From NCBI GenBank assembly GCA_014905635.1, contig JABVCE010000009.1, positions 310,001 to 374,000 on the forward strand: a stretch of DNA of 64,000 nt, in the 5' to 3' direction. Both the position numbers and the translations under genes were made by a program. This document shows positions 12,458-61,968 of the stretch, piece by piece (within the stretch, counting starts at the first letter, position 1; each line of letters starts with the position of its first letter). This DNA comes from Scenedesmus sp. PABB004 (taxonomy: Eukaryota). The notes under the pieces are model-generated. The model saw only the letters and a program-made list of their open reading frames with translations, had not been told where the DNA came from and did no database searches.

Positions 12458-15400
12458 TCAAAAGTCCTTGAAGTCGCCCTTGGACACGTAGGGCCGGCCC
12501 CGGTACGCGCCGCCCGCGGCCTGGTCGTCCACCGCGGCCCCGTTGAAGTTGCTCGCGTCGCCGGGGCCCTTGACCTGGCGCGGCGGCGCGGCACGCACAC
12601 GCGGTCGCGTGCGCCCGCGCCCCTGCCGGCGGTCCCGCAGCCCCCGCTGCCGCCGCCGGCCCCTGCTCGCGCAGCGCGTGCGCGCCGCGCGCACCACGGG
12701 CACGTAGGGCGCCTTGAGCTTCTTGGCGGCAAAGGCCTCCCAGTCGAGCCCCGCAAACCAGGCGTGCTTCTTGACCGCGCCCGCGCCGCCGCTGCCGCCG
12801 CCGAGGCGGTACGCCGGCTTGCGCACGAGCAGCGCGGCCACGAGGTCGCGCAGCTCCTGCGAGCGCGGGTCACGCGGGAGGGGCGGGCGGGCGCGTCGGC
12901 GCGCGACTGCCGCCGCCGCGGGCGCCCCCGCGCGCCGAGCGTTGGACGCGCGCCGGGTGCCGCGTCTGCCGCCGCAGAGCACCACGTCCCCCCACCGGGC
13001 TGAAGGTCTTGGGGGAGGCGTAGGTGCCGTCCACGATGCGGCGGTACATGGCCAGGCGGTCCTCGTGCATGAACGGCGGCGCGCCCGCCACGAGCTCGTA
13101 CGCCAGCACGCCCAGCGACCACCTGGGGTGGCGCGCGCGTGGGCGGGGCGCGCGGGCGGGGCAGGGCGGAGGGCTGAGGGGCGGGGCGGGGCGCGCCACG
13201 CCGCCGCGGCTCGGCACGCCGCGGCGCACCAGTCGGCCGCCTGCCAGTGCCCCTCGCCCACGATGAGCTGTCGCGGCGGCGGCGGCGGCGGCGGCGGCGG
13301 CGGCGGCGGCGGCGGCGGCGGCAGTCGGCGCGGGCGCGCAGGCGCGCGCCCGCTCCGCGGAGCGACACCGGCCGCGGCCGCGGCTGCGCGCGCCCGCCGC
13401 CGCCGCGTCACCTCTGGCGCGAGGTACTCGGGCGTGCCGCACAGCGTCGACGTGCGCTGCCCCGGCAGCACCTTCTTCACAAACCCAAAGTCCGCCATCT
13501 GCGCGCGCCGCAGCGGCAGGCGGCGGCGTCGCGGTCGGCGCACCGCACCGCGGCCCGGGCGCCGCCCGGCGAGGAGGGCCGGCCGCCGCGCCGCGGCGCG
13601 CGGCGCGCGGGTCGGCGCGCGCAGCTTGCAGCGCATGGCGCGCGCGGCTCGCAGCTCGCAGGATGGCACGCGCAGCTCGCAGGGCGGCGCGCGTGGCTCG
13701 CAGCGCTCGGCGCGCGCAGCTCGCAGGACGGCGCGGCGCGGGGCGCGGTGCGCGCCTTGATGTACCCGTCCTCCCCGATCAGCAGGTTCTCTGGCTTGAG
13801 GTCCCTGTAGACGAGGTGCCGGCCGTGCAGGTACTCCAGTGCGAGCACGACGCCCGCGACGTAGAAGCGCGCGTGCGCCTCGGGCAGCGGCGCGCGCCGC
13901 GTCTGCGCGGCGGCGCGGCGCGCGGCGCGCGGCGCGTCTGCGCGTCTGCGTGTCTGCCTGCGCGCCCGCCGCGGGGCCGCCAGCCGCGCCACCCCGCCGC
14001 CCTGCGCGCCCCGCGCGCCCCGCCGCCTCCCGCCCCGCCCGCAGCCGGGCGCGCGCCTGCAGGTAGGCGAAGAGCTCGCCGCCAAGCACCGCCTCGAGCA
14101 GCATGTACACGTGGCGCCCGTCCTGCCCGCTCGCGACGAGGTTGACGAGCCAGGGGCTGTCGCACTCGGCCATCGCGCGCTTCTCGCGGTGCACGTGCGC
14201 GACGAGGCGGCTGTCCACGATGTGGCCCTTGGCCATCGCCTTGAGCGCGTAGCGCCCGCCGCGGTACGACACGAGGCTCACGCGGCCGAAGCCGCCCGCG
14301 CCGAGCGTCGCGAGGTGCGTGACCTCGGACAGCACGAGCTCCTGCGCGCCGCGCGGGCGGGCGCGTGGGCGCGGTGCACAGGCGCGCGGGCGCGTGGGCA
14401 CGTGGGCGCGCGGGCGCGGGCGGTCGGGTGGGCCGCGCGGGGGCTGTCGGCGCGCTGCGCGCTGCGCTGTGCGCGCCTTGTCGCTCGCGCGGCCGGCGGC
14501 CTTGTAGCCGACGTAGGCCTTGGCGGCGGCCTCGAGCTGCGGCAGCAGGCCGCCGAGCAGGCCCTCGAAGTGCCCGCGGTCGATAACGAGCAGCGAGGCG
14601 TCGCTGCGCGCGCGCACGGTCGCGGCGCGCGCGTTGCCGCCGGGCAGCAGCGCGAGCTCGCCAAAGTAGTCCCCTGCGGCGGCGGCGGCGGCAGGCGGCG
14701 GCGGCGTCAGCCGGCGTGGCGGCGGGGCGAGGCTGCGTGCGCGGGGCCGGCGGCTCTGGTCCGAGGGGCGGCCACGGCGCTGGGGCGGCGAACCGGCGCG
14801 GTGCAGGCGCTGTCGTGCGGGGCGCGGGGCGCTGCGGTGCTGCGGCGCTGCGCGCGGGGCGCGCACCCGGGCCGTACGACATGACCGGCAGCGGTGCGTT
14901 GTCCTTGAACGCGGAGAGCTGCCCGCTCTCGACGATGTAGAACGCGTGGCCCCGCTCGCCCTGGCTCCGCGGCGGCGGCGGTGGCGCGGGGCAGGGCGGG
15001 GCGGGGCGGGTTGGACGCGGCACCGGCCCGGCGCCTGGGCGTGCGGCCCGGCCCGGCTCGGCGCCGCGCCGCGCGCGCGCCTGCGTGACCACGGCGGCGC
15101 CCTTGGGCACGGTGACCTGCCCCAGCGCGGCGGCGACGGCGGCCTTGGTCTTGTTGTCCAGCCCTGCGGCGCGGCGGGGCGCGGCGGCGCTCGGGCGGCG
15201 CCCCCGACGGCCCGACCGCCGGCGCGCGCGTCACGCGCAGCGCGTGCAGCACGCGCAGCACGCGCGCCGCGGGCGCGCACCCGCAAAGAGCGGCACGCGC
15301 TGCAGCGCCTCAAAGCGCCACATCGAGCGCAGGCTGTCCAGGCGGCCGAGCAGGGCGTGGAAGGCCTCGCGGTCGAGCGTGAGCGCCTGGCGGGGCCCGG

Positions 15401-61968: not shown

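Follow-up and report, generated by a model that had tools for sequence, protein, structure and literature searches.

Burset et al. in 2000 and Thanaraj and Clark in 2001 are said to have found that U2-type introns with a GC donor and an AG acceptor (GC-AG introns) make up about 1% of introns in animals and plants. Here, we analyzed a 64-kb window (the whole stretch of 64,000 nucleotides, positions 310,001 to 374,000 of contig JABVCE010000009.1) of the nuclear DNA of Scenedesmus sp. PABB004, a chlorophycean green alga (Sphaeropleales), and estimate that GC-AG introns are ~20–45% of the introns in this window, not ~1%. All of our results derive from this window and from homologous proteins. The GC-AG introns of the window resemble those of animals and plants in having a GC donor, an AG acceptor, a stronger consensus at the other donor positions (above all exonic AG and a G at +5) and no U12 signals. 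Unlike them, they are 20–40 times more frequent, and the intronic part of their consensus reads GCGCGC instead of GCAAGT, in line with the GTGCGC of the organism’s own canonical donors.

The closest described systems are other GC-rich algae. For Aureococcus, Micromonas pusilla and Chlorella sp., Iwata and Gotoh reported that GC-AG introns reach 39.6%, 22.2% and 7.7% of all introns, respectively; they linked the excess to G+C content and described a consensus 5' end of U1 in Aureococcus and both Micromonas genomes examined (Iwata & Gotoh 2011, PMC3033335). Scenedesmus is like Aureococcus anophagefferens, Micromonas pusilla CCMP1545 and Chlorella sp. in that high G+C goes with a GC-AG share far above 1%, and two of these three are green algae as well (PMC3033335). 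In contrast to these algae, which have 66–70% GC, our window has 78–82% GC and belongs to a chlorophycean; what we add is a strict exonic-AG rule quantified from anchored junctions, with an estimate that refers to 64 kb and not to a genome (PMC3033335). G+C content is uniformly high along the window, ranging from 77.5 to 81.9% over all 16 bins of 4 kb.

In the haptophyte Emiliania huxleyi (65% GC), 56–60% of donors are GC and nine were verified by reverse transcription PCR (Feldmesser et al. 2014, PMC4028052). The likeness extends to an acceptor that stays AG, to GC donors that are very common and whose excess is ascribed to high GC, and to ab initio gene models that under-call GC donors, as they do here; the difference is that E. 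huxleyi has a majority of GC donors with RT-PCR proof, whereas our figure for Scenedesmus is about one third and comes from sequence alone (PMC4028052). Pelagophytes have 14–17% according to a 2024 preprint (bioRxiv 10.1101/2024.10.30.620910). The Scenedesmus window shares the traits of GC-AG-rich algal populations, namely a G+C content well above 60% and a GC-AG share of at least ~10%, both as measured in the window only. In the literature, taken without supplements, we found no published report of abundant GC-AG introns for Scenedesmus. The Scenedesmus case is thus a more extreme instance of a published phenomenon, which extends the principle and does not change it.

The core of the evidence comes from four genes, encoding a phototropin, NAT10, a cGMP-dependent-kinase-like protein (hereafter the kinase) and a SNF2-RING helicase, for which homologs were collected with single-exon queries. 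Proteins were aligned to the DNA with a custom dynamic-programming spliced aligner in which the permitted donor dinucleotides are a parameter, and an intron was accepted as anchored only when most homologs gave an identical placement. The junctions named in a preliminary description of this DNA were re-derived without using its coordinates. Nineteen of the 57 anchored introns are GC-AG (33%, exact 95% confidence interval 21–47%); at a rate of 2%, the probability of obtaining at least 19 of 57 is 1.6e-18, so the very high frequency proposed in that description, against the usual ~1%, was borne out. Three other procedures were tried and dropped: chaining of tblastn matches, in which gapped matches read through in-frame introns; a splice-agnostic whole-gene alignment, which displaced certain junctions by 2 nt so as to imitate a residue of a homolog; and untrained or self-trained ab initio parsers, which joined everything in the window into a single gene and called too many GC donors (95/140; 73/151).

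The placement of each junction was also assessed with the dinucleotides ignored. Up to ±30 nt from each intron end, all pairs of cut points that kept the frame and introduced no stop were enumerated (~790 distinct mRNA variants per junction), and the peptide of each variant was scored against all supporting homologs. Among the 19 GC junctions, the top variant holds GC-AG in 17; among the 38 GT junctions, it holds GT-AG in 34. The mean share of variants holding such a placement by chance is 1.3% (GC-AG at GC junctions) and 0.4% (GT-AG at GT junctions). The two exceptions among the GC junctions are those with donors at 22704 (0.4 points below the top) and 17368 (5 points below). Within ±30 nt of the GC junctions, GT-AG alternatives are either lacking or, at best, add or remove 2–9 conserved residues, and no equivalent placement of a GC-AG junction yields GT-AG. 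When GC donors were forbidden, the alignment score fell in all four genes (2734 vs 3200, 3826 vs 4115, 2410 vs 3135 and 1332 vs 1632).

The phototropin gene (LOV-LOV-kinase; 22057–26290, plus strand) contains 13 introns, five of them GC-AG, exactly as previously described. Twelve of the 13, including all five, have the support of nine or more of the 12 homologs, the first intron (22072, GT) being unanchored; 12 one-homolog intron rows in linkers were discarded. All 12 homologs support each GC-AG intron: 22704–22822 (AIK/MGE, the slash marking the junction), 23923–24076 (VGVQ/VDVT), 24407–24559 (SLQ/GTDLK), 24704–24870 (CTLQ/TDSH) and 25709–25921 (PFR/GQR, with a split codon). The last four are top variants, the last two lacking any GT-AG alternative (for 24704, within ±30 nt); at 22704, the variant ranked above mimics an alanine of one homolog, and resorting to GT-AG would cost at least 48 points. 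One of the phototropin exons matches the deposited NCBI protein HT031_003330 [Scenedesmus sp. PABB004] at 100% identity, and this protein maps back through the same 13 introns, all five GC-AG introns included, with 762 of 762 codons identical, indicating that the public annotation already accepts them.

NAT10 (41.0–46.8 kb, plus strand) has 16 introns recovered with nine or more of the 10 homologs, of which four are GC-AG; 16 rows seen in at most two homologs were discarded. The four introns, 41553–41703 (AVLQ/DFEAL), 42134–42273, 43096–43322 (HRQ/TVQY) and 44726–44829 (QQFQ/DPDF), are each supported by 10 of 10 homologs and are top variants, the last with no GT-AG alternative, and they coincide with the four GC donors previously assigned to this gene. 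The longest anchored intron, of 371 nt, also lies in NAT10 (44247–44617, plus strand) and is less GC-rich than its neighbours; within it, positions 44351–44467 weakly match SNORA42, an H/ACA snoRNA-like element (19.2 bits, E 0.083, against a gathering score of 70), which we mention only as a lead for a snoRNA hosted by this intron. The Ala/Gly-rich coding tails of phototropin (26163–26217) and NAT10 (46301–46351 and 46655–46810) attract spurious short GC-AG introns once GC donors are permitted, and such low-complexity tails are a warning for genome-wide GC-AG counts made from protein alignments.

For the kinase, on the minus strand, distant animal kinases were rejected as anchors because they were too noisy, and the intron set was defined by three close algal homologs (of 10) with a threshold of at least two of the three; ten one-homolog rows were discarded. 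Nine of the 17 introns kept are GC-AG. Those at 17223–17368 and 17020–17132 are supported by all three close homologs, the second as top variant and the first with two variants scoring higher by at most 5 points. Top variants with wider support lie at 16821–16923 (8 of 10 homologs), 15387–15565 (9 of 10), 13903–14056 (AYLQ/TRR, 7 of 10) and 13499–13755 (GYIK/MADFGF, 9 of 10), the last two without a GT alternative. The intron at 15958–16122 (donor GCAAGG) is a top variant in all three close homologs and has no GT alternative either, and that at 15676–15800 is a top variant supported by two of the three. The remaining GC-AG intron, at 14961–15084 and supported by all three, allows two synonymous placements, 15084–14965 or 15080–14961, both GC-AG; an ab initio parser, described below, chose 15080–14961. 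The two kinase donors singled out beforehand, 14056 and 13755, are therefore upheld together with seven others. Two more introns, near 16370 and 14476, have uncertain ends and stay outside the kept set; for the second, the parser predicts a GC-AG intron at 14342–14476 (minus strand, donor score 7.5), the ends of which each of the three close homologs places differently.

The SNF2-RING helicase was aligned with 10 homologs, and introns were accepted with a support of at least four and at most four better variants, which discarded seven weak rows. Among its 12 accepted introns a single one is GC-AG, the intron at 60904–61055 (plus strand, ALEEQ/AIGRAWRMGQ), which 6 of 10 homologs support, is the top variant, has no GT alternative, and confirms the donor expected in this gene.

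Outside the four anchored genes, several junctions could be judged by the continuity of structure or profile coordinates. In BTF3 (NAC-beta), the GC-AG intron at 49729–49815 (plus strand), which had also been proposed, is upheld by the continuous numbering of PDB 8p2k_Nb, in which exon 1 covers residues 6–27, the split codon is residue 28 and exon 2 covers residues 29–78. Further cases had been suggested in a deiminase, a hydrolase and an aldo-keto reductase (AKR). The agmatine-deiminase-like gene has two, both on the minus strand: at 35719–35812 the Pfam PAD_porph profile passes from 56 to 57 without a gap, and at 34706–34833 it passes from 181 through a split codon at 182 to 183, the GT junctions of the gene being equally continuous on this profile. 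The proline-iminopeptidase-like hydrolase has one (39772–39912, minus strand, YDQ/LGCG), where residues 90 and 91 of PDB 3nwo_A follow each other without a gap. The suggestion held less firmly for the AKR, on the plus strand. A probable GC-AG intron at 37530–37647 follows a 17-residue mini-exon which, together with a split codon (18 residues), equals in length residues 136–153 of Tas (1lqa_A), a fit in length only, and a second intron at 37921–38019 is an ab initio prediction. The coordinate-continuous junctions outside the anchored genes thus comprise four GC-AG and three GT-AG introns, bringing the total with the anchored set to 23 GC of 64.

The parser, a generalised hidden Markov model, extends the estimate beyond these junctions. 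It was trained on the 57 introns and their exons and combines codon log-odds, donor and acceptor weight matrices, and separate GT and GC donor classes. In leave-one-gene-out runs it recovered 55 of the 57 anchored introns exactly, a result unchanged for GC-class priors from 0.1 to 0.33. Applied to strand-assigned gene regions, it predicted 152 introns, 41 of them with GC donors (27%); once long bridging introns and introns with weak donors or weakly supported neighbouring exons are removed, 33 of 120 predicted introns have GC donors.

In the anchored set, an exonic AG precedes 18 of 19 GC donors and 15 of 38 GT donors (Fisher p 4.7e-5), and with the synonymous placement of the kinase junction 15084/15080, the figure rises to 19 of 19 (p 5.3e-6). 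Five further GC donors, outside the anchored set, are also preceded by AG. Conversely, anchored donors without an exonic AG are never GC (0/23), compared with 19 of the 34 that have one. At the last exon positions, GC donors have C or A at –3 (19/19), A at –2 (19/19, vs 16/38 for GT donors) and G at –1 (18/19 vs 34/38); within the intron, they have G at +3 (16/19 vs 38/38), C at +4 (17/19; GT donors C 29/38 and A 6/38) and G at +5 (19/19 vs 35/38). Both the AG/GCGCG pattern of the preliminary description and its observation that GC donors mostly follow exons ending in AG are thus reproduced. The donor consensus complementary to U1 is CAG/GTAAGT. Outside +1/+2, the mean number of positions that match it is 3.9 of 7 for GC donors and 3.3 of 7 for GT donors (Mann-Whitney p 0.002), an extra complementarity that fits compensation through ordinary U1 pairing. 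A makes up 6% of the bases of introns, and because of this rarity the motif AGGCGCG is fairly specific: on the sense strand of the gene regions, 28 of its 50 copies are predicted donors, compared with 73 of 108 copies of GGTG[AC]G, both counts coming from a training-biased set.

A model that unifies these data, to which we assign a probability of roughly 0.85, is that these are ordinary introns of the major (U2-type) spliceosome, about a third of which have changed their donor from GT to GC through compensated drift under GC pressure. In a genome drawn so strongly towards G+C, changes from T to C at +2 of introns would constantly arise and spread. Each would cost one base pair with U1 snRNA, and a GC donor would survive only where the remaining pairing is strong, with (C/A)AG at the end of the exon and G at +5, being purged by selection elsewhere. 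The outcome would be two donor classes, AG/GCGCG(C) and NNG/GTG(C/A)G. The setting fits the GC pressure that had been suspected: intron bodies have 87% G+C and a C/(C+T) ratio of 0.87, which means that T-to-C changes at +2 are strongly favoured by the substitution bias, and GC-biased substitution is the probable cause of the GC donors. It had also been proposed that the T at +2 has become dispensable when an exonic AG is available. This holds in that GC is common after exonic AG; it does not hold in full, since the T is partly retained, 15 of 34 anchored donors after exonic AG (44%) keeping GT against ~13% T expected at neutral C/T sites.

Several observations weigh against this model or narrow its reach. 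The GC-AG share is uneven between genes, both in the anchored set (kinase 9/17 vs helicase 1/12) and in the filtered predictions (kinase 11/19, phototropin 5/12, peroxidase region 0/8, sulfatase region 0/8); with 64 kb only and such a wide spread, the genome-wide share is uncertain. Training on the anchored introns partly imposes the AG rule on the introns predicted across the window. AGGCGCG is not depleted from exons relative to synonymous-codon shuffling (observed 9, expected 8.2), in a small sample, and so offers no independent hint that the heptamer is recognised as a donor. Finally, in a whole-gene decoy control, permitting GT and GC donors gave gains of 466 and 489, and permitting GT with the best decoy, CG, gave 403 and 431; this is a weak control, as most of an intron is already cut out by any donor close to the real one.

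The machinery itself might have changed. The splicing apparatus (the 5' end of U1, U1C/Luc7 or Prp8) could have co-evolved with the ~79% GC genome, making C at +2 nearly neutral after exonic AG, which we hold to be unlikely; if it were true, the genome would be heading to a GC-AG majority and would offer a natural experiment on the drift of 5' splice-site recognition. Somewhat less credible still is an adaptation beyond tolerated drift, in which an altered spliceosome (U1 5' end, U1C, Luc7 or Prp8) accepts either C or T at +2. The very high share (19/57) would be expected from such a change, as would the excess of GC over GT donors after exonic AG (19 to 15), yet GC donors still need AG at –2 and –1 and G at +5, are more complementary to U1 than GT donors, as a canonical U1 predicts, and are absent from the 23 anchored donors that lack exonic AG. 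Moreover, the window contains a U6 snRNA gene (62889–62989, plus strand; Rfam RF00026, 96.3 bits) with the canonical ACAGAGA box, and the U1 5' end has the consensus sequence in GC-AG-rich Aureococcus and Micromonas (PMC3033335). Within the 64-kb window there is no U1 snRNA gene. That GC donors strictly require AG and +5 G points to a canonical U1, which is probably unaltered; the altered U1 considered in the preliminary description is unsupported and not needed to explain the abundance of GC-AG introns. The U6 gene, for its part, lies in an island of 46–54% GC amid ~80% GC DNA.

Junctions could instead have been misplaced, in-frame "ARARA" insertions could be retained in the proteins, or T-to-C errors could have entered during assembly or polishing. 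Permitting GC donors did produce spurious one-homolog introns in low-complexity linkers, and such rows were dropped in phototropin (12), NAT10 (16), the kinase (10) and the helicase (7). An artefact of this kind is nevertheless very improbable as a general explanation. Against it stand the 17 of 19 GC junctions that are the best of ~790 variants with dinucleotides ignored, and the location of the junctions in conserved core regions (LOV, kinase, NAT10, SNF2 motif, NAC), where PDB and Pfam coordinates continue unbroken. In addition, 18 of 24 GC introns have a length that is not a multiple of three, such that retention would break the conserved downstream frame. Sequencing errors would not favour AG-preceded sites. 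Removal of the GC-AG introns from RNA is indirectly suggested by homologous proteins, some of them from transcript assemblies of other species, which continue across the junctions without insertion. Removal by the minor (U12-type) spliceosome, whose introns can have varied termini, or editing of the +2 C to U in the pre-mRNA is extremely improbable, and we found nothing in its favour. Neither a U12-type donor (RYATCC, one mismatch allowed) nor, within 40 nt of the intron end, a branch box TCCTTAAC occurs in any of 24 GC introns or 38 GT introns, which contradicts the U12 part. The pattern GCGC at +3 to +6 is common to GC and GT donors, and nuclear C-to-U editing of such a kind is not known to us in green algae.

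The gene map of the window was drawn from Pfam scans of coding-looking segments. From left to right, it comprises two peroxidase segments (1.7–4.4 kb, plus strand), an MFS transporter (5.2–6.6 kb, minus), the kinase with cyclic-nucleotide-binding domains (12.4–18 kb, minus), a RAP-domain gene (18.4–20.5 kb, minus), phototropin (22.06–26.29 kb, plus), a sulfatase and MinE (28–33 kb, plus), the agmatine-deiminase-like gene (33.6–36.2 kb, minus), the AKR (36.7–38.8 kb, plus), the alpha/beta hydrolase (39–40.3 kb, minus), NAT10, BTF3 (49.66–50.9 kb, plus) and the SNF2-RING helicase (~57–62 kb, plus). Positions ~28–98 of the peroxidase profile are matched twice on the plus strand, at 1711–1935 (E 2.9e-14) and 3693–3902 (E 5.2e-16), which suggests two tandem peroxidase genes.

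The genome table of Scenedesmus sp. PABB004 lists 39.8 Mb, 78.5% GC and 7,092 genes, and relatives have 13,000–17,000 genes (PMC12571836). Standard gene finders had been expected to fail on GC-AG introns. This is only partly right. The public phototropin model splices all five; on the other hand, two of the three genes that we queried for a deposited protein, NAT10 (four GC-AG introns) and the kinase (at least nine), have no match. Exon queries of these two genes found no 100% identical protein in a collection of 5.8 billion proteins, the best matches being 71–75% and 77% identical and coming from related algae. NAT10 and the kinase seem to be missing from the deposited annotation of Scenedesmus sp. 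PABB004 or to be modelled wrongly there.

Spliced aligners and gene-finding programs restricted to GT donors would mis-model about every third intron of the genome, and a re-annotation that allows GC donors under the AG/GC..G rule should recover genes. At ~79% GC, Scenedesmus sp. PABB004 would be the most GC-rich organism with a reported GC-AG share among the literature that we compared. The clean rule that we observed (0/23 GC donors without exonic AG vs 19/34 with it) quantifies how compensation at the 5' splice site limits GC-driven drift. We believe that the value of these findings is mainly practical, for the annotation of this and similar genomes, and that they provide in addition a quantitative example of splice-site compensation.

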